A DNA stretch of 64,000 nucleotides from a virus (taxonomy: Duplodnaviria; Caudoviricetes). Positions 11,826 through 23,624 of the stretch are shown piece after piece (positions within the stretch are counted from its first letter, which is position 1; the number at the start of each line of letters is the position of its first letter). The position numbers were made by a program, and so were the translations under genes. Where the stretch lies: IMG/VR virus record IMGVR_UViG_3300042554_000772, positions 760 through 64,759 of that record; one strand, given 5' to 3'. Under the pieces are notes generated by a model. It did not search any database, was not told the DNA's origin, and saw nothing but the letters and a program-made list of their open reading frames with translations.

Positions 11826-13114
11826 TGGCAGCACTTAGCAGGGCGGTAATACAACTACCAGACTTCGCTGAAATGGCTTACAAAAAGTCATTAGCGGACG
11901 AGGAGCGTCGTTTAAGGGACGAGGAGAAGCAAGAGCGCAAAGTGGCTCAGAGGCAGCGGGAAGTCGATACTTTCGGTGTCAAGCAGTCTTATTACGAGAA
12001 ATCTTTCGCATTAGAGCCAGGCGCTAAAGCGGTAGCAGGTGAAGCATATAAGGCGTTTGAACAGGCTGGTATAGAATACGAGAAGACTGGCAGCGAAGAA
12101 GCTAAGCTTAAAATGCAGAAAGCGGCTGGTGTATACAACCAAGTTGTTGGTACTGGATTAGCAATATCTAATGGTATAATGGAAGAGGCGGAGACTTTTA
12201 GAAAGAATCCTTCAGCTTTTACTTCAGAAAGTCAAAAAGTGGCAAATCAAGCAATCGCTGATAGAAAAAACATTAACTTTCAACCTGTTCTTGAGAATGG
12301 GGTTTTATTCGTTACTGAAAAAGGCAAAAAGATACCAGTTACTGAATCCGTTTATTTTTCAACTAACTTACAACCAGGCTACAACACGCTTGGTTTAGTG
12401 CCAGTTGACCCATCTACCAAGTATATGAATCCAATGGAACAGGCTCAGCTCCTATCCAAGGGTCATTCGGATGCCAATGGGGTTAAAATAGACGATGGTA
12501 CGAATATTACATATAATAAACCAGAATTAGTCAAAAAAGTTAGGGCAGCCTATGAGAATAATTTAAAGGAATACCTGCCACAGGTGGAAGCTGTTATACT
12601 TAGACATTGGACTGCAGTAAATGGTAGACCTCCTTCTCCTCAGGAAAGGGAAAGCGTTATAGCTGAGTATAAAAACCCTACCTTATTTGAATCCGCTAAG
12701 GAAAGATTCTGGAGTGAAATGTTTCCGTTTATTGATACTCCACCAACACAAAGAGGGGTTGCATCTCAGCAACGCGAGCCATCGAAGAGAGACGAAGAGC
12801 TATCTTTCTTCTTGGAGAACTCAAAGCCAACTCCTGGAGTCTTCTCAGACGGGCGTAGAGCTATTCGCTTCATGTCCCCTCCAATTAAGGACATCGAGAT
12901 TGATAACTTTAACTATACCATCAAAGAGGTATCTTTTGACAAAAAGGGAACACCGAGTATGGTTATCACTGACTCAGAGGGTGATGTTTTAAAGAATGAC
13001 TCGAAGGAGTTCAAGTCTGCATACAAGGAGGCTCTTATTGACATGAAACCGTACCTTTCAAAGTTGAGGGCGATTTCTATGAATGAGCTATCTCGCAAAC
13101 AACCATTACCATAA
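11825..13114 (+). CDS. putative ejected cargo protein 2
   Basis: Helical, charged, coupled by TAATG; position between cargo genes. Confidence 0.55.
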   Translation: MAALSRAVIQLPDFAEMAYKKSLADEERRLRDEEKQERKVAQRQREVDTFGVKQSYYEKSFALEPGAKAVAGEAYKAFEQAGIEYEKTGSEEAKLKMQKAAGVYNQVVGTGLAISNGIMEEAETFRKNPSAFTSESQKVANQAIADRKNINFQPVLENGVLFVTEKGKKIPVTESVYFSTNLQPGYNTLGLVPVDPSTKYMNPMEQAQLLSKGHSDANGVKIDDGTNITYNKPELVKKVRAAYENNLKEYLPQVEAVILRHWTAVNGRPPSPQERESVIAEYKNPTLFESAKERFWSEMFPFIDTPPTQRGVASQQREPSKRDEELSFFLENSKPTPGVFSDGRRAIRFMSPPIKDIEIDNFNYTIKEVSFDKKGTPSMVITDSEGDVLKNDSKEFKSAYKEALIDMKPYLSKLRAISMNELSRKQPLP

Positions 13115-13127
13115 TAAAACAATCTAG

Positions 13128-16100
13128 ATGGATACAGAAGTTAAAAAGTTTGTGGAGCGCTCCATCAAAAGGGGCGACTCTTTAGCCCAAATTAAATCTA
13201 CGCTTGTTTCCTACGGCTGGGAGGAGAATGTAAACGAGGCGACAGGTTACTACGACGAGTTTAAAAAAAAAAGTCCCGCTGGAACTGGCTTAAGGGCCGC
13301 TGGGGTTTCTCCTTCGAGGCAAACGGTTACTCCGTCTTCATCGGGGTTTGCTTCTCAAGAAACTAAGAATATACCATTAGAGGACCCGCTCCTCACCAAG
13401 AAAGACGGGTATGCTAAGTCTTTGATGGAGCAGCTGAACTTAGCTGCAAAGGACAAAAACAATAGGAATAAGTACGTTCCAACCATCAACAAGCTTTGGA
13501 ATGAATACTCGTCAATCGATAGGGGAGCGCCTACCCCTTTAAGTCTATTTGAGGATAATGGGGCTATAAGCAAGAACTCATTAAATCTTCTTAATGAATC
13601 TTCTGCTAGGAATGCAGAGAGAATGAAAAGGGAAGCTATAGCAATAGCTAAAGATGATAATGTTTTAGAGTCGGGTGTAAGAAGTTTATGGGCGGGCTTA
13701 CTTGGTACAGCAAATTATCTTGGCGACTTGGTTGACCCAGATAGCTACGATGATGTGCCAGATGCAAAAACAGACCTTGAAAAGGAAGCTGAAGCTCAAT
13801 CGGCTAGGGCTCAGAAAGCCTCCTATGGACGTAAGTTATTAGCTGGGTACACGGACAAACAGATTGAAGATGGGTTCTACAAGAACTTTGCTGATGGCAA
13901 TGTAGCTACAGCACTCGGTCTGTTTGGTAGGGATGTGGTAGAGCTTCTGCCTCAAGTCGCTGCAAACGCTATCCCATACGTCGGTCTTCCCGCTCTGGCA
14001 GCGTCTGCTGGTGGTCAAGCATGGCTTAAAATTAAAGACGACGAGAAATACAACACACTCGAAAAGTTTCTGTACGCACCGCTTGTTGGTGCTGCTGAAT
14101 ATTTTACAGAGAAGTTCTTCGGCATGGATAGAAAAATGATTCAAGAAGGACTGTCAAAAGCATTCGGTAAGACCATCACATCAGCAGCTGATATCCCAAA
14201 GAAAGAGCTCGGTGATATGATTTTCGGCACACTGCCAAAAGCTGTTAGAGCTCCGTTGGAAGAAGGTTTTGAGGAAAGTCTTGTGAGCACTTTTACGCAA
14301 ACCCTTGACAAGATTATGGCTGAAAAGCCATTTGACCCTGTTGAAATCGCTGAGTCTGCTATGCTTGGTGCTGGGGCTGGTGGTTCGACATACGCATTGG
14401 TGCGAGGCAGTTCCGCTTTGCTCCAAACCCCGTTGTTCTCTGATGTATACAAGATTACGAATACCGCAGCGAATATTGACAATATACTCAAATCCAAAGA
14501 CATCAGCGACGAAGAGAGGGTTATCCTAACCGACCGATTAAACGGGTATAAGACTCAAATGAGGAAGCTTCAAGATGGGGCTAGCGAATACTACAAGCAG
14601 TTCTCACAAGAAGATAAACAGAAGACGCTTGAGCTAAATCAAACGATATCTAGAGGCATCCGCTCTTACAGCACCATGAAGACGGCTGAAGCTAAAGCTG
14701 AAACCGTAAACAGAATCAAGCAATCACTAGCCGAGAAGGCACAAATCGAACAGAAATATGATAGTGCGCAAAAACAACAAGTACCAAGTCCAGTCGTCCA
14801 AGGGGCGCAACCTGGGGGAGTTCCCGTCCAAGGAACAGGCACAGAAACGCCTCAAGCAGGTGGAGTACTTCAAGTACCTAGCCAGCAAGAAGAAAAAGTA
14901 GCAGAAGCTGCTAAGCAACCAAACGTCGGATTCAGACCTACAAAGGCTAGCCTTACATCTCAAACGCTTCCTCAGATTCTTTCTAACCTAAAGTCTTATG
15001 TTGAAAGTATTCCTGAAGAAACGCTGCAGAAGTTCGAGACAACACGCCAGTCAATTACGAATGGGTTTGAATCCGTTGCTAATGTAATATCCTCCTTTGC
15101 CAAGGAAAGTCTTAACGTCGAAGTTGAGGCCATTAACACCGAAGACGAATGGAATAAGGCAACGATGGACCCCACCACTGGAAAGCCAGAGAAGCTGTCT
15201 AGGGGCCTGTATTACCAAAGAGGACAAGAGGGGGCTCCCTCTAAGATTATCCTGTTCGCCCCAGCATTGCTTGGCAACACGGTCTATCACGAGGGTATCC
15301 ACGAGATAGTCCCACAGGCATTTGGTCAGGAGGGTATAAACAAGGTGGCTAAAGCGCTTGCAAGCGGAATAAAGCGAGACCCAGGGCTTAATGCAAAATT
15401 TGGTAACTTCTTGTCTCAATACGAGCAAGGTGACAAAAACGAAGAGCTTCTTGCTGAGTTGGGGGCAATGGTTGCAGCTGGAGATATCGATGTCGAGATT
15501 ACGAAGAGCCTCGCCACACGATTTATGGAAGCCGTAGCGAGCGTATTAGGAGCGGTTGGTATCAAGATGGCACCGAACTCTTCGCAGCTCTCTGAGGCGT
15601 TTTTAAGCTACTCACAGAAGCTCGGAGCTGGGGCTAAGCTTGATATTCAAAAGACAGCTGAAACCAAAGAGGAAGGAGACAAAAAGGGGCCAAAGAGACA
15701 AGCTGTTGGACTTAGAACGAAAGAGGAAAGTCTTGCTGAATTTGGCTTCCCAGTCGGTGATAAAGTAACCAATATCCGTCAGGTAGGTGCTGCGTTAGAG
15801 AAAAGACAACAGAAGAAGTATATTAAAATAGCTAAAAACGATACCAGCGACAAGGCAAAAGATATTATCTCAAACTATATGGTTGATGAGGTGATATTTG
15901 AACTAGAATCACTCGGTGAGTCTTCTGCTAAGGGTTGGTATGGGGAAAAGTTTCAGAAAGCACTTGATTTGCTGTCTGAGTCTATACCCAGCCTAAAAGA
16001 TAAAGGCAACAGAAATTTGTTTACCATGCTTGTTGCTATAACTTCTGATGGACAAAAGGTTATCAATAATTTCACCTATGCTATATCGTTATACAACTCT

Positions 16101-19100
16101 TACTTAAAGGATGGCGTTGTATCTGACAAATTTAATTTTGGTGGAGATAGGAATTCTGGGATGAAGATAAATGTAGGCAATATAAATAGATTAATTAAGC
16201 AATATGGGAATGATTTTGTTGCAATCAATGATTTTCTATTGCAAACAGATAGCTACGGTAATATCAAGAAGAAATACAATATAAAAAAGAGCGATTACAA
16301 AGTAACCACAACGATGCCAATTTCGGCTGGGGTATTTGGGCCTAAATTAGGAGCGTTCTTTGCGAACCTTTCTGGTCAAGAGAACTATTTGACCATGGAT
16401 AGATGGTGGAGTAGAACTTTTAATAGATATAGGGGTATACTCTTACCAACTGTAAAAGAACAGGGCAAGCAGAAGTTTTTAAATGCCATAGGAAAACCAA
16501 ACATTAGCAACAACGCCTTCCTAAAAGAGGTCAAAAAGTATGCTGACTCATACATAAAGAAAAAATACAAAAACGGTACAGCTATAGAGAAAGCGGCCAA
16601 TACCATCTATAAAGCTGCTTTTGTAGAGCTTAATGATAAGCCTTTTAATGCTGGAGATAGGGATATGATGATTGAGACAACGCAGGTTGCTCAAGAAAAA
16701 CTCAAGAAGGCTGGTTATGATTTATCAATGGCTGATATTCAGGCCATATTATGGTATTTCGAAAAAAGACTTTACGCAGAGATACAGAGCAAAAAGTCAG
16801 CAATGGACGTGGATTATTCCAATGCTGTGACCAAATTAATAGAAGGGAAAAAGGATTTATCATTCTTGCCAAACGAAGTCTCGAAAATTGTTAATGTAAA
16901 GGAATCTGAAGACGAATATGTTGATGCTATTAGTTCTCCTAGTAGCAATATTATACAGCTAGATGAAGCTGTTGATTTAGCTGCTGTTGATAAGGCCACA
17001 GAGACTATAAATAACGCTCAGAAAAGAAAGACCCCAAAGCGTCAAGGTTTTGAGGGTAAGCAGTCAGCGACATTCGTAAGAGAGTTAGATATCGCTATTA
17101 CCCCAGCGACAACCGAAAGAAAGTTTGATAAGGTAACAGCTAGAATAAAGAGCCTATCTGAGAAATACGATAGATTAGTAAAAGAGTCAGAGAAAGGGAT
17201 TGACAACTCAGAGGAGATTAATAACGTAGCCTCTCAAATACTAGATGCAGCGAGGAAACAGCTTGCTGCTAGGATTTCTAAAGTAAAAGGTGCTTCCGTT
17301 AAGTTTGACGATGATTTTAGAGGTCTGTACAACAATGTATTCGAGCCATCTTTTAACCTCAAGCTAAGGCTTACACCACAATCAAATGAGAATGAGGTAT
17401 CTCAGATTCTCAACGAGTTTGCTGAGAGATATACTCAAGATGCGTTTATCGTAGAAACAGCGTCAGAAGAATCAGAGGACTTTAGGAAGCAGTTAGGGGA
17501 AAATGTAATGCCTCTTGGCGATTACGACGAAAAGACAAATATGTCTCATTTCCCGCAACTTTATGCGGAATTTACCAGTCCTTTATCCGATAAGGAGCTA
17601 AATGAACTATCTTTGTCTTTAAGAGAAGGCGGAATTGATGGATTCTCGCTTAATAAGAAAGAATTAAAGATAACTATATTCCCATTTTTAACAGAAGAAC
17701 AAGAAAAATTATCAGAAGATGAGCAGCGAAGAATCAAAAAAGAATATTACGACGAACAAATCAGCTCAGCCCGAAAAGCTATGGCTAACGTCAGCCGAGT
17801 GGGAAGAGATGTCAAGTCAGAGGTCAGGTTCAGGAAGTCAACCTACAAAGGGGCAAAATCAACCGAAGGAGCAACCAGACAATACGATAGAGATAACTTT
17901 CTTAAAGCGCACAAAGACGGATTAACTAAGTATGAGCTGCTAGCTAAAGAGTTCAATAAGCTTCGTCTGGAGGAAATAGAGCTCTCCAAGAAAAAGGAGA
18001 AGCTACCTAATGATAAGCAAAAAAGGTATGATGAAATAAAAAGCGTCATTCAGCCTATCATCCAAGACACAATAGCTTTAAATGAGCCTTTTTACAAGGA
18101 GGCTAAGCGTGAGATAGAGAGAATTGCGTCGTCTGTTTCCCGCAACCTAAGAGGAGCATTCGTTTCTAGGTTCAACATAAAGAGACCAGAAAGGGCCTCT
18201 ATAAAGGTTATGCGATGGTATAACTCTGATATAGAAGACCTCGGTGATGGGGCTAGAGTAAATATCATCGTTGATAACGAGCAACAGGCTGACAGGCTGT
18301 TTAACGAAATCGACAAAAAGAACCCATCAAAAAACCCTGACAGGGAGAGGCGTGTAAATGAGACCACCGATTTGGGTTATCCGAAGCGTCTCATCGAGAT
18401 GGATACAAAGAATGGATTCATAGGGGAAATACAGATAATGACCCCAGAGGGGTATCTGGCTAAAGACGGGGTTGATTACTTTGACGACAATCAGCAAGAC
18501 TTTGCTAGAAAGAGACTCAAAGAAGTTCAGAATCGATTGGGATGGGCTATACCAGATGGTATAGGGCACTATTTCTATGAAATCAATCGTGACGAAAACA
18601 TAAACGACGAACTTAGGGAGCGTGCTAAAGCCCTTAGTCTTTCTTATTACAAGGCGTTTACAAACCCATCGTTTAAGTTAAGTGAAAGCGAGTTCACTAA
18701 AGAGCTGGCTAAGTTCAAAGAAGACGTAGACAAGGCTGATAAGAGCACTTGGGATGAAGGCAATAGCGGTAAATCACCAAAAACGCTAGACACCTATCTA
18801 GAAGAATCTGGAAAAAAAGAGCCAAAAGAAAGCGCACCTACTAAGAAGGCCATGCTCCAGATTATTGGTTCTAACTCACAGATGAAAGAATGGACATCTA
18901 AGATGCTATTAAAGGCAAACGAGATGGAGAGACGTGGAGTTAAGCCGAAAACAATCTTTAATGTGACTGGATGGGAGAGAGGAGCCGATAAGAAATGGAG
19001 ATACCCAGTTCCAACATTCAAGCTTAACTACACTAAAGTGGCTGAATTCAACGAAGGGCCAGTAGGTAATACGGTTAGCCTTTACGACCTTGTTGAAAAT

Positions 19101-22100
19101 AAGGGGAGGTTCAAGGAGGATACATCTAAATTCGGTTACAATAGATACGAATACGATGACAAGGGTAAGACAAGGACAAAGGAGAACGAGGACGTATTTG
19201 ATTTCTACCCAGAATTTGCTAATATGAAAGTAACGCTGGGACCATCTAATGGTTCTACGTTTTTTAAACATACGAAATCACCTGGGTCAAAAGGGCTTGG
19301 TGAAATAACTATGTCAAAAGATTGGTACAACAAGAGTCCAGACCACTTTTTCTTTGTTCTTGTTCACGAAATACAGCACGCAGTACAGAGAGAAGAGGGA
19401 TTTGCTGTTGGTGGTAGTGCATCAACCGTTGACAATGAAATCGATGAAGTTATTAAGGCAAACGAAAGAATCCTTAAAAACAAGGACAAGATTGTACCAG
19501 CTCTAAAAGAGAACATAAAAGAGCAAAAAAAGCGGATAAAATGGTATATCGACCAAGGGTATAGCCAAGAAACAATGATTAAGGATGGCGTATTGACCAC
19601 TCTTGATGGCTTAGAGACTCAGGTTCGTATGATTGACGATGTTGAGAAGCAATTAAACCTTTTAAAACAGATAAAAGCGGCTACTAATTTATCCAGCGTA
19701 GAGAAGTATAGAATCCTTTCTGGAGAGGTAGAGGCGGATAATGCTGCTAGAAGAGCTGCTTTTCAACTTGCTAAGGGGTCTCTTGCTACACAGCCGCTCA
19801 TAGATACCGAAGAAATCCCTAGAGAGTATCAGCTCATAATCACCCCAGATATCGAGGATATGTCTCTACCGTCTTTCTTGACTAAAATGGGATATCCCTC
19901 TAAACCCAAGCGTCAAGATATCTTAAGAGTAGCTGCACTGAAAGACGTGGAGAGTACGGCTAAGGCGTTAGAGGAGAAGTATTCAGCACAACCGATTAAA
20001 AGAAATGATATAATTAACAATAATCCACAAGAAATATATGCTTTATCAATAGGTATAAATCCAAGTAATTTATCCTATTTAGGTAAGGGGGATTTCGGGA
20101 AGGCATATAGCACTGACATTGGAACTGTTATAAAAATAACTTCATCAGCCAATGAGGCAGAAATAGCTTTAAGTTTAATAGGAAAAAAGGGAAACCACGC
20201 AGAAATATATGATGTAAAAAAAGTTGAAAACGAGTTTATTATACATCAAGAAGAATTAGACACTTATTCAGAAATTGAAGACAATCTACAAACAGTAGAA
20301 AATATTCTAAGCGAACAAGAATTGCCAATTCAGTATTTAGACTATTTAGACTATGACGAACTAAGTCAAGAGTCCAAAGATGAATATGATAGTTTATCGA
20401 ATTTCATTTCTGATTTAGAAGACATAAATGGACTTTATAGGAATTTAGGTATTGAAGCATCTGATTTGCAAAGTGGTAATTTAGGTTACGACAAAAACGG
20501 GAAACTAAAAGCATTTGACTTACAAGATAAATCTTCAAAGATAAAATCAAAAGATGTTAATGCAGATGCCCTTAAAGATAAAAATCAAGTAATCTCCGAA
20601 GCCTACCACGAAGCCAAGAAAGACGGGTCTAATCCTGAATTAGTCAAAGCGGTTGAGGACTTGTTGGTTGGAGAACAACAGCAACCAAAGCGCCAAGGCA
20701 TCTCAAAAGCTCAAGGGCCACTAATACCGATAGTCTACAACAGCTTGCTGCAGCAATCCACTAGGAACGCAGATGGGACGAATACCCCACCGTACACGCT
20801 TCAGGAGTGGCTGACCATGATGACCCCTTACCTGAACGCACAGACAGCTACTGCAATCTACAACGGTGTTGCAAGGAACAAGCCACCGTTCACTGCACCA
20901 AGCATCCAAGACGCTTACGATAGCTCAAAGAAACGCATGGAGGCAGGGAAGAACAAGGCTTTCTTCACATGGAACAACCTCAAGAAATACTTCATTGACA
21001 GACAGGCAGAGCTCAAGAAGGCGATTCTCGCCTCTGGGATGAAGAACGCTTACAACTATCTGGTCAACAAGGCTGGGTCTGGGGCTAGAGCTGCCTACTT
21101 CTACTACGAGAAGGAGAAGGATATCTACAAAGACCTCAAGAAGGAACAGATTGAAAAGCTCGACCAGATTATCATGCTCAGGCGTATCATCGAGATTGAT
21201 AGCAACTTCGATGAGCGTGGCGAAGCCCGCCCAAAGCACACCAACGGATTCAATAAGGGGTACGCTGAGATGGAGCTTTCAAGGCTCCAGAGTGAGCTTG
21301 GGGACGCTGCTTACAACGACCTCAACAACCGTGCAACCAAGTACTTTGATGCTTTCCGTTCGCTGTTAGACTCTATGTACGAGGAGGGGCTTGTTAGCGA
21401 GGAGCTGTACGAGCAGCTGAGGGATATCGATTACCAACCACGATTGTTCCTAGACCACGTTTTCGAGATGGATGAGCCATCCATGCGTGAGATGAACCTA
21501 AGCGCTGCACAAATCAAGCGAATCAAGGAAGGTAGCGAGGGTGACATTATGTTTGACTCAAGGTTCCTCCTAGCTCTTTATGCTAAGAGCGCATTCTCCA
21601 AGATTGCACGCAACAAGGCTAACAAGGAGATTGCCAAGGCCACCGAGGCACAGGGCAACGAGTCATGGGTATCCAAGACTGATAAGCCAGGCTTCAGCGA
21701 GGTTACTTACTTTGAAGATGGTGTCAAGAAGTCTTTCTACTTAAAGGATAACTTGAAGTCAGAGCTTGACGACATCAGCCGTGTATCAGGGATGCCTCAG
21801 AACATACAGAAGCTAATCGGTATGGTTACGGGTTCATTTGCAGTCAAGCTGTTGGCCACGAGGGCAAACCCATTGTTTGTCGCTAAGAACGTACCAAGGG
21901 ACTATCTGCACGTTCTCTTCTTCACGAAAGCATACGATAATATGTCCCTACCGCTTGCAGCCATGAGGCTCGCTGGTGACTTCATCAAGGGTGTTAAGAG
22001 CAAGCTCCAAGACGACCAAGACTTCAAGGACTTCGTTGAGTTCGGTGGTGGTATGGACTTTCTGTCCACAGAAGGAATGGAGAGTATGATTACGAACAGA

Positions 22101-23624
22101 ACTGTAACTAACAAGATTATTGAGAAGCTTGGTAAGGCTGGGGAATTATCAGAGATTGGCTTCCGCTTGGCTATGTACAAGAAATTCAAGGAAGACGGCA
22201 TGAAGGCCCTAGGACCTAACGCAACGGAGGATGAGGTTACAAGGGTTAAGGTTCAAGCTGTTACACAGGCTAGAGAGATGATTGACTTCTCTCAGGGCGG
22301 TATTGCAACGAAGAACTTGGAGATTGTCTCCCCCTACATCAACTCAGCATTCCAAGGCTTCAGGGTATCAACTAGCTACATTCAGAATAACCCCAAAGAG
22401 TTCGCTAAGAAGCTTGGATACTTATCTATCGGTGTAATGATGCTTGCGCTTTACAATGCGATGCTTGGTGACGACGATATGGAGGATATCCCAGAGGAGA
22501 CCAAGCGTAAGTACTTTATCATCATGACTCCGTTTACTTTCGAAGAGGACGGGAAGACCAAGCGTCACTATGTCAAGATAGCGAAGACACAACAGCTTGC
22601 ACCATTCATTGCTGGTCTTGAGCTGACATCGGATTACTTTGTTGCAGGGGTTATGGGGCGTAAGCCAAGAGAATCCAAGGATGCTTATGAGTACGCTTGG
22701 AAGGGGGCTACAATGTACTTCCCTAAAGACCCAAGCAACATCAAGAAAGAAATCTCTTCATCGGTTCCGTTGTTTGCTGCTATAGCTGCCTATGACATGA
22801 ATTACGACACCTACAGAGAGCGTGCTGTGTCAATGGACTACAACCAAGTGCTCCCACAGGACGAAGACTTCACCAACAAGCAAGTCCCTTACTTTTACAA
22901 GGCTCTCGCTCAAGGTATCGGTGCATCTGGCGGTGAGGCTGGCCCTAAGCGCCTTCAAGTCGCTACTGAGAAGTTCGTAACCACCCCGTATTCATCCTTG
23001 CTAACCATGGGTGCGTACACGATACTTGATTCGTTCTCAAGGCTATTCGAGCTTAAGGGCCCAGGAGGTATCCCCGTAAAAGACCAAGCAGCTATCTCTA
23101 ACAGCGTCAGCAAATCGTTAGGACTCAGTGCTTCCAAGGTGTTCACGGGTGCTACTGAGCCAGACTGGAGGAGCTACACGAGGAAGGAAGAGATTGAGCG
23201 CATCAACATGGAGGAGAAGTCCGAAAGACGTGGTATCAAGATTGCAGCTCAGAATATCGGTCAGAAGTACTTTGAGGCTTCCAACGCAAAGGATAGCAAG
23301 GCTATGAGCGAAGCTAGGAAGGAGTACCAAGATGAGTTGATGCGAATCAAAAAGGAGAGCGGTGTACCAGACGCTAAGTATTTTATGGATGCCTTCCAGC
23401 AAGCCAGAAAGTACGGGAAAGCCACCAACCCAGAGTACAACGACATCAGCTACGCTGCAAGCAACGAAGCTAAAGCGAGAATCATCATGGAGTACGGGGG
23501 TAGGACGATGAGCAGAAAAGAGTTAGTAGAATACATCAACGACTATAAGCGGAAGACTGGTAAGCCAATCAATGGTTCCGAAATCCTCCGTGAGTATCAA
23601 AAAGAAACAGGCTATGGTAAGTAA
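13128..23624 (+). CDS. giant polyvalent cargo protein (zincin, glycosylase-like, RelA/SpoT-like, LPD23-zincin, protein kinase, LPD38-like)
   Basis: HEGIH at 15288; GWY..AITS..GPKLGAF..TMDRWW..QAILW; K.PERA..K..DGAR..GY..EIQI..GH.FYE; TGWERGADKKWR plus HEIQH and GEVEA; GKGDFG..K..DLQSGN..AFD; IDFSQGG..PYINSAFQG. Confidence 0.8.
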   Translation: MDTEVKKFVERSIKRGDSLAQIKSTLVSYGWEENVNEATGYYDEFKKKSPAGTGLRAAGVSPSRQTVTPSSSGFASQETKNIPLEDPLLTKKDGYAKSLMEQLNLAAKDKNNRNKYVPTINKLWNEYSSIDRGAPTPLSLFEDNGAISKNSLNLLNESSARNAERMKREAIAIAKDDNVLESGVRSLWAGLLGTANYLGDLVDPDSYDDVPDAKTDLEKEAEAQSARAQKASYGRKLLAGYTDKQIEDGFYKNFADGNVATALGLFGRDVVELLPQVAANAIPYVGLPALAASAGGQAWLKIKDDEKYNTLEKFLYAPLVGAAEYFTEKFFGMDRKMIQEGLSKAFGKTITSAADIPKKELGDMIFGTLPKAVRAPLEEGFEESLVSTFTQTLDKIMAEKPFDPVEIAESAMLGAGAGGSTYALVRGSSALLQTPLFSDVYKITNTAANIDNILKSKDISDEERVILTDRLNGYKTQMRKLQDGASEYYKQFSQEDKQKTLELNQTISRGIRSYSTMKTAEAKAETVNRIKQSLAEKAQIEQKYDSAQKQQVPSPVVQGAQPGGVPVQGTGTETPQAGGVLQVPSQQEEKVAEAAKQPNVGFRPTKASLTSQTLPQILSNLKSYVESIPEETLQKFETTRQSITNGFESVANVISSFAKESLNVEVEAINTEDEWNKATMDPTTGKPEKLSRGLYYQRGQEGAPSKIILFAPALLGNTVYHEGIHEIVPQAFGQEGINKVAKALASGIKRDPGLNAKFGNFLSQYEQGDKNEELLAELGAMVAAGDIDVEITKSLATRFMEAVASVLGAVGIKMAPNSSQLSEAFLSYSQKLGAGAKLDIQKTAETKEEGDKKGPKRQAVGLRTKEESLAEFGFPVGDKVTNIRQVGAALEKRQQKKYIKIAKNDTSDKAKDIISNYMVDEVIFELESLGESSAKGWYGEKFQKALDLLSESIPSLKDKGNRNLFTMLVAITSDGQKVINNFTYAISLYNSYLKDGVVSDKFNFGGDRNSGMKINVGNINRLIKQYGNDFVAINDFLLQTDSYGNIKKKYNIKKSDYKVTTTMPISAGVFGPKLGAFFANLSGQENYLTMDRWWSRTFNRYRGILLPTVKEQGKQKFLNAIGKPNISNNAFLKEVKKYADSYIKKKYKNGTAIEKAANTIYKAAFVELNDKPFNAGDRDMMIETTQVAQEKLKKAGYDLSMADIQAILWYFEKRLYAEIQSKKSAMDVDYSNAVTKLIEGKKDLSFLPNEVSKIVNVKESEDEYVDAISSPSSNIIQLDEAVDLAAVDKATETINNAQKRKTPKRQGFEGKQSATFVRELDIAITPATTERKFDKVTARIKSLSEKYDRLVKESEKGIDNSEEINNVASQILDAARKQLAARISKVKGASVKFDDDFRGLYNNVFEPSFNLKLRLTPQSNENEVSQILNEFAERYTQDAFIVETASEESEDFRKQLGENVMPLGDYDEKTNMSHFPQLYAEFTSPLSDKELNELSLSLREGGIDGFSLNKKELKITIFPFLTEEQEKLSEDEQRRIKKEYYDEQISSARKAMANVSRVGRDVKSEVRFRKSTYKGAKSTEGATRQYDRDNFLKAHKDGLTKYELLAKEFNKLRLEEIELSKKKEKLPNDKQKRYDEIKSVIQPIIQDTIALNEPFYKEAKREIERIASSVSRNLRGAFVSRFNIKRPERASIKVMRWYNSDIEDLGDGARVNIIVDNEQQADRLFNEIDKKNPSKNPDRERRVNETTDLGYPKRLIEMDTKNGFIGEIQIMTPEGYLAKDGVDYFDDNQQDFARKRLKEVQNRLGWAIPDGIGHYFYEINRDENINDELRERAKALSLSYYKAFTNPSFKLSESEFTKELAKFKEDVDKADKSTWDEGNSGKSPKTLDTYLEESGKKEPKESAPTKKAMLQIIGSNSQMKEWTSKMLLKANEMERRGVKPKTIFNVTGWERGADKKWRYPVPTFKLNYTKVAEFNEGPVGNTVSLYDLVENKGRFKEDTSKFGYNRYEYDDKGKTRTKENEDVFDFYPEFANMKVTLGPSNGSTFFKHTKSPGSKGLGEITMSKDWYNKSPDHFFFVLVHEIQHAVQREEGFAVGGSASTVDNEIDEVIKANERILKNKDKIVPALKENIKEQKKRIKWYIDQGYSQETMIKDGVLTTLDGLETQVRMIDDVEKQLNLLKQIKAATNLSSVEKYRILSGEVEADNAARRAAFQLAKGSLATQPLIDTEEIPREYQLIITPDIEDMSLPSFLTKMGYPSKPKRQDILRVAALKDVESTAKALEEKYSAQPIKRNDIINNNPQEIYALSIGINPSNLSYLGKGDFGKAYSTDIGTVIKITSSANEAEIALSLIGKKGNHAEIYDVKKVENEFIIHQEELDTYSEIEDNLQTVENILSEQELPIQYLDYLDYDELSQESKDEYDSLSNFISDLEDINGLYRNLGIEASDLQSGNLGYDKNGKLKAFDLQDKSSKIKSKDVNADALKDKNQVISEAYHEAKKDGSNPELVKAVEDLLVGEQQQPKRQGISKAQGPLIPIVYNSLLQQSTRNADGTNTPPYTLQEWLTMMTPYLNAQTATAIYNGVARNKPPFTAPSIQDAYDSSKKRMEAGKNKAFFTWNNLKKYFIDRQAELKKAILASGMKNAYNYLVNKAGSGARAAYFYYEKEKDIYKDLKKEQIEKLDQIIMLRRIIEIDSNFDERGEARPKHTNGFNKGYAEMELSRLQSELGDAAYNDLNNRATKYFDAFRSLLDSMYEEGLVSEELYEQLRDIDYQPRLFLDHVFEMDEPSMREMNLSAAQIKRIKEGSEGDIMFDSRFLLALYAKSAFSKIARNKANKEIAKATEAQGNESWVSKTDKPGFSEVTYFEDGVKKSFYLKDNLKSELDDISRVSGMPQNIQKLIGMVTGSFAVKLLATRANPLFVAKNVPRDYLHVLFFTKAYDNMSLPLAAMRLAGDFIKGVKSKLQDDQDFKDFVEFGGGMDFLSTEGMESMITNRTVTNKIIEKLGKAGELSEIGFRLAMYKKFKEDGMKALGPNATEDEVTRVKVQAVTQAREMIDFSQGGIATKNLEIVSPYINSAFQGFRVSTSYIQNNPKEFAKKLGYLSIGVMMLALYNAMLGDDDMEDIPEETKRKYFIIMTPFTFEEDGKTKRHYVKIAKTQQLAPFIAGLELTSDYFVAGVMGRKPRESKDAYEYAWKGATMYFPKDPSNIKKEISSSVPLFAAIAAYDMNYDTYRERAVSMDYNQVLPQDEDFTNKQVPYFYKALAQGIGASGGEAGPKRLQVATEKFVTTPYSSLLTMGAYTILDSFSRLFELKGPGGIPVKDQAAISNSVSKSLGLSASKVFTGATEPDWRSYTRKEEIERINMEEKSERRGIKIAAQNIGQKYFEASNAKDSKAMSEARKEYQDELMRIKKESGVPDAKYFMDAFQQARKYGKATNPEYNDISYAASNEAKARIIMEYGGRTMSRKELVEYINDYKRKTGKPINGSEILREYQKETGYGK
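13263..13366 (+). other. A10 slippery tract and -1 frame extension KSRWNWLKGRWGFSFEANGYSVFIGVCFSRN*
   Basis: TTT AAA AAA AAA AGT at codons 45-49; the -1 frame is open to TAA 13364-13366 with preferred C/G-ending codons. Confidence 0.5.
14758..14901 (+). CDS. nested 47-aa basic protein in the +1 frame of the giant gene
   Basis: MIVRKNNKYQVQSSKGRNLGEFPSKEQAQKRLKQVEYFKYLASKKKK; A-rich start context; resembles a small phage family of form MIRK..RNLG.F...A.KRL.QVEYFK. Confidence 0.75.
   Translation: MIVRKNNKYQVQSSKGRNLGEFPSKEQAQKRLKQVEYFKYLASKKKK

Follow-up and report, generated by a model that had tools for sequence, protein, structure and literature searches.

What does a run of ten adenines do inside the gene of a giant virion protein, just 45 codons after its start? 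The question is raised by a 64,000-nucleotide stretch of Caudoviricetes DNA, referred to below as the window, which covers positions 760 to 64,759 of the IMG/VR record IMGVR_UViG_3300042554_000772 (64,759 bases, rated complete by CheckV). The run, A10 at window positions 13263–13272 of the plus strand, is longer than any other homopolymer in the 64-kb window, whatever the base, and lies in a 3498-codon open reading frame (ORF; 13128–23624, plus strand) for a large polyvalent virion-type protein, between the three-helix N-terminal domain (N-domain) and the rest of the protein. Comparison with related loci makes it likely that the run is a conserved slip site, or recoding site, from which both the giant protein and a protein of about 72–80 residues are produced. 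Most decoding would proceed in frame to the 3498-residue protein, and a fraction of the decoding events would gain one base within the run. The shifted product of about 79 residues would consist of the N-domain, a Lys stretch and a basic, Trp/Phe/Gly-rich tail of 30 residues with a predicted hairpin fold. Since the run also changes its length in DNA (A8–A12), the product ratio could in addition be shifted heritably.

The A run and its conservation

The run consists of codons 46–48 (AAA AAA AAA) and the first base of codon 49 (AGT). A sequence-only reading of this DNA had given codons 45–49 as TTT AAA AAA AAA AGT, together with the position of the A10, the translation of the −1 frame and a product of about 79 amino acids, all correctly. 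Codons 1–45 (13128–13262) encode the small N-domain common to the long and the short product, for which AlphaFold2 predicts helices at residues 3–15, 19–28 and 32–48 with a predicted local distance difference test score (pLDDT) of 86–90. The −1 ORF runs from stop to stop (13265–13366) and encodes KKK, a basic and aromatic tail of 30 codons and the stop TAA at 13364–13366. Its translation is K-SRWNWLKGRWGFSFEANGYSVFIGVCFSRN, the tail being rich in Trp, Phe, Gly and Arg/Lys, and with one extra K the short product has 79 residues. No ATG, GTG or TTG occurs inside this ORF and a TAA at 13262–13264 shuts the frame at the 5′ edge of the run; it can therefore be entered only by a shift inside the run. 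In the +1 frame, the run is followed by a tail of six codons, VPLELA (13273–13293 with the TAA at 13291–13293), so that loss of one A would give an N-domain-only product of about 54 residues. The frame-0 residues overprinted by the −1 ORF (49–85; 13272–13382) form an S/P/G-rich linker. From residue 52 to residue 85 its pLDDT is below 50, between the confident three-helix domain and later helices, which agrees with the earlier description of the linker as featureless. A predicted disordered linker is the usual setting for overprinting.

Homologues were collected by a word-indexed search with residues 1–500, which returned 31 proteins of 2179–3659 residues. A hydrophobic residue followed by KKK closes an N-terminal domain of about 45 residues in 28 of the 31, and in two the N-terminus is absent. 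The remaining homologue (P0013) has its N-terminus in another frame, joining at the run. When 10 N-termini were aligned, identity fell to as low as 26%, and K46–K48 were among only eight invariant columns. At the DNA level 15 loci were compared: the window and IMG/VR locus L002 (the closer groups), a group of IMG/VR loci about 27% identical to the window (L004–L009), and seven JGI/ENA metagenome loci. They were retrieved with protein patterns satisfied by Lys codons of either kind, so that no A run was required. An uninterrupted T-A(8–11)-GTCC nevertheless occupies the same domain boundary in all 15, with A10 in twelve and A11, A9 and A8 in one each (L012, L015 and L016). The lineages that carry it are only 26–27% identical over the N-terminal 130 residues. 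As expected for programmed slippage, which calls for an A or T run of about nine bases or more within a coding sequence, the run has been kept among homologues against codon preference: AAA makes up 41% of the Lys codons in the giant gene and 30% in the other ORFs, AGT accounts for 11% of the Ser codons, and the other KKK triplets found in the phage (four of four) are each interrupted by AAG.

The −1 frame after the run stays open for 30 codons in two groups of these loci and for 28 or 22 codons in the other lineages. A recurring pattern is seen in the tails: Ser comes first, then residues that are basic and aromatic, Gly and a short hydrophobic strand; after a turn at Gly, a second strand ends in Ile/Phe-Gly-Val/Ile, and the tail finishes with charged residues. 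When IMG/VR was scanned for the run together with its flanks, 90 stretches were returned, 12 of them with the gene layout; five of the 12 represent three further lineages, whose tails have 25, 24 and 16–17 codons. The sequence-only reading had proposed looking in homologues for a conserved tract and −1 ORF, and both were found, the −1 ORF being open for 16–43 codons in every lineage examined. In 12 of 12 T-A10 or G-A10 loci this ORF lacks a start and a TAA or TGA overlaps the 5′ edge of the run.

More distant relatives extend the comparison. The nearest cultured ones by large terminase (TerL; 40–50% identity) are Elemovirus of Flavobacterium, Maribacter phage Panino and Cellulophaga phages, podophages of Flavobacteriia. 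Elemovirus isolates carry G-A10-TCA at codons 57–60 of a syntenic giant gene annotated as a ‘structural protein’, with a −1 tail of 43 residues that contains Trp/Phe-Gly motifs. In MW202828.1, a syntenic gene of 3859 codons has an N-domain of 62 residues followed by C-A11-GAC, the sole run of A9 or longer in that genome; its −1 tail has 25 residues and is basic, then Tyr/Cys/Ile-rich. In Panino, G-A9-TCC stands 32 bases ahead of the annotated start of a 1829-codon gene, and the −1 tail, which is of the same kind, has 36 residues. In this genome (PP540027.1, 33717–33900, minus strand) the annotated start of the giant gene is an internal GTG, the upstream N-domain ORF that runs into the tract is unannotated, and a small coding sequence has been called over it on the opposite strand; the giant-gene annotation has probably been split by the A tract. 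Some searches gave no further loci. With the window N-terminus as the query no related locus was found among viral contigs, and neither blastn with 2 kb nor a tblastn search with the first 700 residues gave a match in the phage collection, where the Elemovirus N-terminus matched only within Elemovirus. DNA of the lineages P0019 and P0031 was looked for and not found.

Alternatively, the conservation could lie in the protein, with KKK serving as a linker or cleavage motif or arising by chance, the A run being a by-product and the −1 ORF a compositional shadow of the S/P/G-rich linker. KKK is indeed invariant at the protein level, a Ser-rich frame 0 automatically gives hydrophobic −1 codons, and a deep motif of frame 0, PS-x-S-E/G, overlaps the conserved stretch of the tail. 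A protein motif, however, would not explain why every lineage has AAA where AAG is the preferred codon, or why the A of AGT/AAT is kept. The run persists while the neighbouring frame-0 residues change (SP, NQ, NP, DE), and the substitutions described below favour the −1 protein over frame 0. We regard this explanation as highly improbable. The frame-0 motif deserves mention in its own right: in the form P/R-S-x-S-E/G-L/S it is kept in all lineages (window about 13310–13345; P0019–P0031). Like the frame-0 motif [LV]-S-E, it resembles the Leu/Val-x-Glu sites of phage prohead proteases, and on this likeness the N-domain might be a removable targeting piece.

Selection on the −1 frame and the short product

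How unusual is the −1 ORF within its own gene? The −1 frame of the giant gene is open for at least 30 codons at 4.2% of positions and for at least 22 codons at 10%. Trp, Phe, Tyr and Gly together make up 40% of the tail, above all 143 other open −1 windows of the gene (maximum 37%). The codon adaptation of the −1 ORF is 0.796, which is 2.5 standard deviations above those windows (0.695 ± 0.041) and may be compared with 0.771 ± 0.053 for true frame-0 windows; within the overlap frame 0 itself reaches 0.711, under the gene average. A preference of the phage for codons ending in C or G had been put forward as a sign of coding in the tail. This holds for TTC, AAC and TAC, which are mildly preferred (57–60%); it is marginal for ATC (261, versus 248 for ATT) and fails for CGC, which is not preferred.

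For the substitutions, loci were compared without gaps within three lineages, groups C, B2 and E, the last with six loci. In group E the variable columns at codon positions 1, 2 and 3 number 6, 5 and 29 in the N-domain (43 sites per position), 10, 4 and 24 in a first downstream block (50 sites per position), and 28, 14 and 69 in a second (100 sites per position). Within the overlap, the counts are 3, 6 and 3 at 23, 24 and 23 sites. Third positions of frame 0 thus vary at 3 of 23 sites in the overlap and at 122 of 193 in the flanks (Fisher p = 5e-6). Position 2 of frame 0, which is the wobble position of the −1 frame, behaves in the opposite manner. In group B2 it varies at 4 of 30 sites in the overlap versus 1 of 196 in the flanks (p = 0.001). 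Over the three groups it accounts for 12 of the 26 variable overlap columns, as against 24 of 210 in the flanks of E and B2 (p = 6e-5), the flanks of C being left out because no ungapped alignment exists there. Ten of the 26 columns are silent in the −1 frame yet alter frame 0, often radically (A/D, E/G/K, L/P/Q, L/S), and six are silent in frame 0 only. Replacements in the −1 frame are of the kinds K/R, I/V and A/T and include a charge-keeping swap of all three bases from AAG to CGC. On these small counts, frame-0 synonymous variation is lost in the overlap and the substitutions spare the −1 frame, as expected of an overprinted coding sequence. An RNA element does not account for the constraint on silent sites. 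Folds of 130-base stretches from six loci gave z-scores of +1.0 to −2.3, with no shared or significant structure, and RNA structure was ruled out as the cause on this ground. The tail would accordingly seem to be a functional peptide kept by selection and overprinting the disordered linker of the giant protein. The programmed short form proposed in the sequence-only reading gains support from the conserved run, the open ORF without a start, and substitutions that spare the −1 frame.

The same observations bear on a further possibility, that the poly(A) track is an attenuator on which ribosomes stall or slide at AAA, holding down a low-copy protein, and that the tail has no function. According to PMC4363877, sliding and a lower output result from iterated AAA codons in E. 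coli, and PMC4552401 describes poly(A) tracks as attenuators. Both shifted frames end within 6–30 codons in the window, as an attenuator would have it. An attenuator, though, would not keep an ORF of 16–43 codons open in every lineage, nor would it conserve one shifted frame as a protein and not the other. The +1 tail varies from 4 to 33 codons across lineages and is probably not selected as a peptide. Attenuation as the whole explanation is thus very unlikely, and a slip that yields the short protein remains the reading we prefer.

The short protein also occurs in nature as a plain ORF. Contigs with A11 or A8 encode it directly (P0033, identical to L012; P0035; and P0032, from L016), and P0035, with 80 residues and four member sequences, has a tail almost identical to that of the window. 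For three natural short forms AlphaFold2 gave a mean pLDDT of 75.5, with helices at residues 2–15, 19–28, 33–36 and 39–56 and a hairpin of two strands, 59–66 and 69–76, in the tail block (pLDDT 64–71). The beta-hairpin expected earlier from the letters is consistent with this model, which is of moderate confidence and built on three rows. The short forms matched nothing in Pfam below E = 0.07 and nothing in the PDB by Foldseek at E ≤ 0.001; the best score in the ESM Atlas, 0.84, is a lead only and names no family. A four-copy complex prediction scored 0.01, against a mark of 0.42, which says nothing either way on oligomers. The roles suggested in the sequence-only reading, setting stoichiometry and perhaps oligomerising into an outer-membrane pore for cargo or DNA ejection, gain no support from these results.

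A profile of the short form, searched against 1.84 billion representatives, gave 66 matches. Most of them carry the N-domain unit as tandem repeats of about 38 residues, up to 10 per protein. The unit (P0038–P0098) is three-helix, with the signature G-x-S-x-x-E/Q-I-K-x-x-L-x-x-x-G-W, and no Pfam model of its own was matched; one repeat protein reaches the three-helix RecX model of Pfam (RecX_HTH1) by summed score, a weak likeness. The repeats often follow a membrane span and stand at the C-terminus of large surface proteins. Recurrence in repeat proteins suggests that the N-domain is a common small module of the binding type. Our guess is that the short protein is a membrane- or partner-binding companion that shares the docking domain of the giant protein.

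Level of the slip and variation of the run in DNA

A shift could be produced by the ribosome or by RNA polymerase. The sequence-only reading assumed a −1 ribosomal shift, and the heptamer that this requires, A-AAA-AAA, is present in the zero frame within codons 46–48. The slippery heptamer of E. coli dnaX is A-AAA-AAG. The other part of the assumption fares less well. No stem-loop or pseudoknot is shared by the folds of the six loci that could act as a conserved stimulator, and no Shine-Dalgarno-like motif was seen upstream of the run by direct reading of the loci. The run is 9–11 bases long in every lineage, and a heptamer would serve the ribosome. Nine A/T bases are reported as the length at which many bacteria select against such runs, and the A9 run of Thermus dnaX is described as giving heterogeneous mRNAs and about 50% short product via polymerase slippage (PMC1088944). 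The length of the run, the lack of a stimulator and this precedent favour transcriptional slippage. If the run is a slip site, addition of an extra A by RNA polymerase on a 10-base A:T hybrid is the more likely route and takes rather more than half of our confidence in slippage; a ribosomal −1 slip on A-AAA-AAA takes about a quarter, and both levels may contribute.

The public sequencing runs that contain the stretch are lake-water metagenomes and metatranscriptomes, and Logan contigs of three of the metatranscriptomes (X15, X16, X17) and one metagenome (X2) were inspected at the run. In X15 (RNA), three contigs with an extra A stand beside the A10 contig (depth 10.1 of 27.3), and one of the three runs into the other N-domain type. 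A11 was absent from X16 and X17 (RNA), whose depths of 11.3 and 6.9 are too shallow for absence to be meaningful, and from X2 (DNA, depth 92.8); the samples differ. The RNA evidence is equivocal, and the A11 contigs are at most a weak hint of slippage in RNA.

Changes in run length are seen in DNA as well. Of the seven metagenome loci, three carry a run that puts them out of frame (A11 in L012, A9 in L015, A8 in L016), and the plain-ORF short forms in the protein database imply A11 (P0033, P0035), A12 (P0034) and A9 (P0036), P0034–P0036 being known from protein only. P0034 is a natural plain-ORF form with the +1 tail. Variants differing by one base occur among otherwise close genomes, as in a contingency locus: L013 and L014 (A10), L015 (A9) and L016 (A8) differ at only 8 of the 88 bases after the run, and L010 (A10) stands against L012 (A11). 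Behind the shifted runs, the giant frame remains open for 603, 241 and 215 of 231 codons. In L016 (A8), where a stop is met after 215 of the 231 codons read, the stop may reflect decay of a switched-off copy or a second indel.

These variants raise the possibility of a pure contingency locus, in which a hypermutable tract switches the giant cargo gene on and off as bet-hedging against host defences and the tail has no role of its own. Besides the three length variants, the plain-ORF short forms (P0033–P0036), the homologue shifted at the run (P0013) and the frame that stays open behind shifted runs agree with such a switch, and A9 tracts have been described as phage contingency loci in T2 agt (bioRxiv 10.1101/2025.10.21.683753). 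It leaves unexplained, however, why the −1 peptide is under purifying selection, why the ORF is codon-adapted, and why in all lineages it lacks a start and is bounded by stops. The run is also steadier than such a switch would suggest. A10 was found in 8 of 8 IMG/VR loci and unchanged in 53 of the 60 Elemovirus isolate records listed, with no other length among them. The seven remaining records start at the first or second A (MT497081.1, MT497085.1, MT497087.1, MT497103.1, MT497111.1, MT497115.1, MT497125.1), and many other listed records start 90 bases upstream of the run; the starts at the run suggest assembly breaks at or near the homopolymer. The A9 of Panino leaves the N-domain in frame with neither of the two other frames, and was not used as evidence of variation, because the genome is reported to have been sequenced on MinION only (PMC11590407) and a homopolymer error is possible. 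A switch by itself is in our view a rather unlikely account. It is compatible with slippage as an added layer, and the data suggest that variation in DNA is a real second layer and not the reason for the conservation of the tail.

Among co-existing lake strains (L002, L010–L016), either type of N-domain, MDTEV or MAEDL, is found freely joined to the various types of downstream module. Over a block of about 70 bases around the run (13243–13312), depth rises 3- to 4-fold, de Bruijn contigs of four runs break, and loose ends enter other modules. From these sequences the slip block is a shared mosaic junction between N-domain and downstream module types.

A more ambitious proposal joins all of these elements into a two-level rheostat for injected anti-host cargo. 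Polymerase slippage would supply a fixed share of a small Trp/Arg-rich hairpin protein in each infection, and length changes of the DNA tract (A8–A12) would heritably reset the ratio or silence the giant protein, as bet-hedging. The hairpin protein would act with the giant protein via the docking domain of the latter, for instance at the membrane or portal or in packaging and ejection, and the arrangement would be common to the whole clade of Flavobacteriia podophages, with module swapping centred on the slip block. As a joint claim this is somewhat unlikely, though not implausible.

Several points weigh against the conserved slip site itself. That slipping takes place is deduced from comparative evidence. 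The selection test draws on just 26 variable columns in three groups of 3–6 related sequences, and these small counts are the main weakness of the coding argument; elemoA and elemoD offer no help, since their first 380 or so bases are identical and leave no substitutions to score. The tails are only loosely alike across lineages, with lengths of 16 to 43 residues and no Trp in that of MW202828.1. Part of their likeness is to be expected where frame 0 is rich in S/P/G, since TCN gives Phe, Leu, Ile or Val when it is read one base early. The IMG/VR pattern scan presupposes A10-GTCC and so tests only the ORF. The predicted hairpin derives from an alignment of three rows with a tail pLDDT of 64–71. 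Finally, A11 strains exist in DNA (P0035) and RNA libraries may hold DNA, so that X15 cannot separate slippage from polymorphism.

Gene context and comparison with known systems

The assignment of the giant ORF to the large polyvalent proteins is supported by the Pfam domain LPD23 (37.7 bits, cut-off 27); LPD38, at 19.3 bits, stays under its cut-off. Homologues of the ORF carry PF18838, PF18857 and PF18760. The gene sits at the end of a structural module with the large terminase, the portal, several ‘virion structural protein’ families and a protein of 1470 residues. Leaders ahead of start codons are A/T-rich (TAATAAAACAA..ATG) and have no Shine-Dalgarno motif (window 13090–13130; L010–L016, L031, L057), consistent with Bacteroidota hosts. 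The runner-up homopolymers of the window, A9 at 49100–49108 and A8 at 49034–49041, are both intergenic. Each precedes the same TGTGGGGAA motif, 66 bases apart, and the pair could represent a repeated regulatory element.

Virion proteins of the giant polyvalent kind are believed to enter the host along with the DNA, which gives the control of their synthesis and loading its interest. A search of the literature, supplements not covered, found nothing on slip sites in such proteins or in these groups of phages, and no description of the run was found in the literature on Flavobacterium or Elemovirus phages. If the slip site is genuine, a hidden and unannotated small protein would exist in every genome of the clade, from uncultured lake phages to the cultured phages of Flavobacterium and Maribacter, and gene callers would sometimes split or truncate the giant gene at the site. 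Cultured systems would offer a direct experimental handle, and the locus would be a clean new case in which slippage by the polymerase, slippage by the ribosome and phase variation of the DNA could be told apart at a single site.

The mechanism is of a known kind, homopolymer slippage that makes two proteins with a common N-terminus. The closest likeness is dnaX of Thermus thermophilus, as described in PMC1088944. There too an A run of hybrid length lies within a coding sequence and needs no downstream stimulator, dnaX mRNAs occur in all three frames, and the shifted-frame product is a shorter protein with the common N-terminus. In that account, however, the run lies seven-eighths along dnaX and the shifted frames stop almost at once. 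In the phage, the run lies at codon 46 of 3498, so that the short form has 2% of the length of the long one, and it gains from the −1 frame a conserved peptide of 16–43 residues. For the phage, slippage is proposed from sequence comparison.

The −1 frameshifting of phages, as in the lambda G/GT pair (PMC5009743), likewise makes two products with a common N-terminus from one gene of the structural module, and A-AAA-AAA is in frame here. Sites of this type differ from the present one in several respects: here no downstream structure is conserved, the run measures 9–11 bases where 7 are needed, the shifted product is the short form and not an extension, and the hosts apparently lack Shine-Dalgarno leaders. 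The A9 contingency loci of T2 agt (bioRxiv 10.1101/2025.10.21.683753) are alike in having an A tract within a phage gene, variants of one base more or less, and a gene plausibly involved in conflict with the host. Unlike these, the tract described here is conserved at 26% protein identity, keeps to one domain boundary, and comes with an overlapping ORF that is under selection.

P3N-PIPO of potyviruses (PMC4552492, PMC5027478) belongs to a plant RNA virus and arises through its replicase at GA6, a run of 6–7 bases, whereas the present case is a double-stranded DNA phage with a run of 10. In the published descriptions, it is similarly a short overlapping ORF without a start that is entered only via polymerase slippage at a conserved A run, and its product is an N-terminal fusion with a new C-terminus. 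PIPO, too, was first recognised by its conservation.

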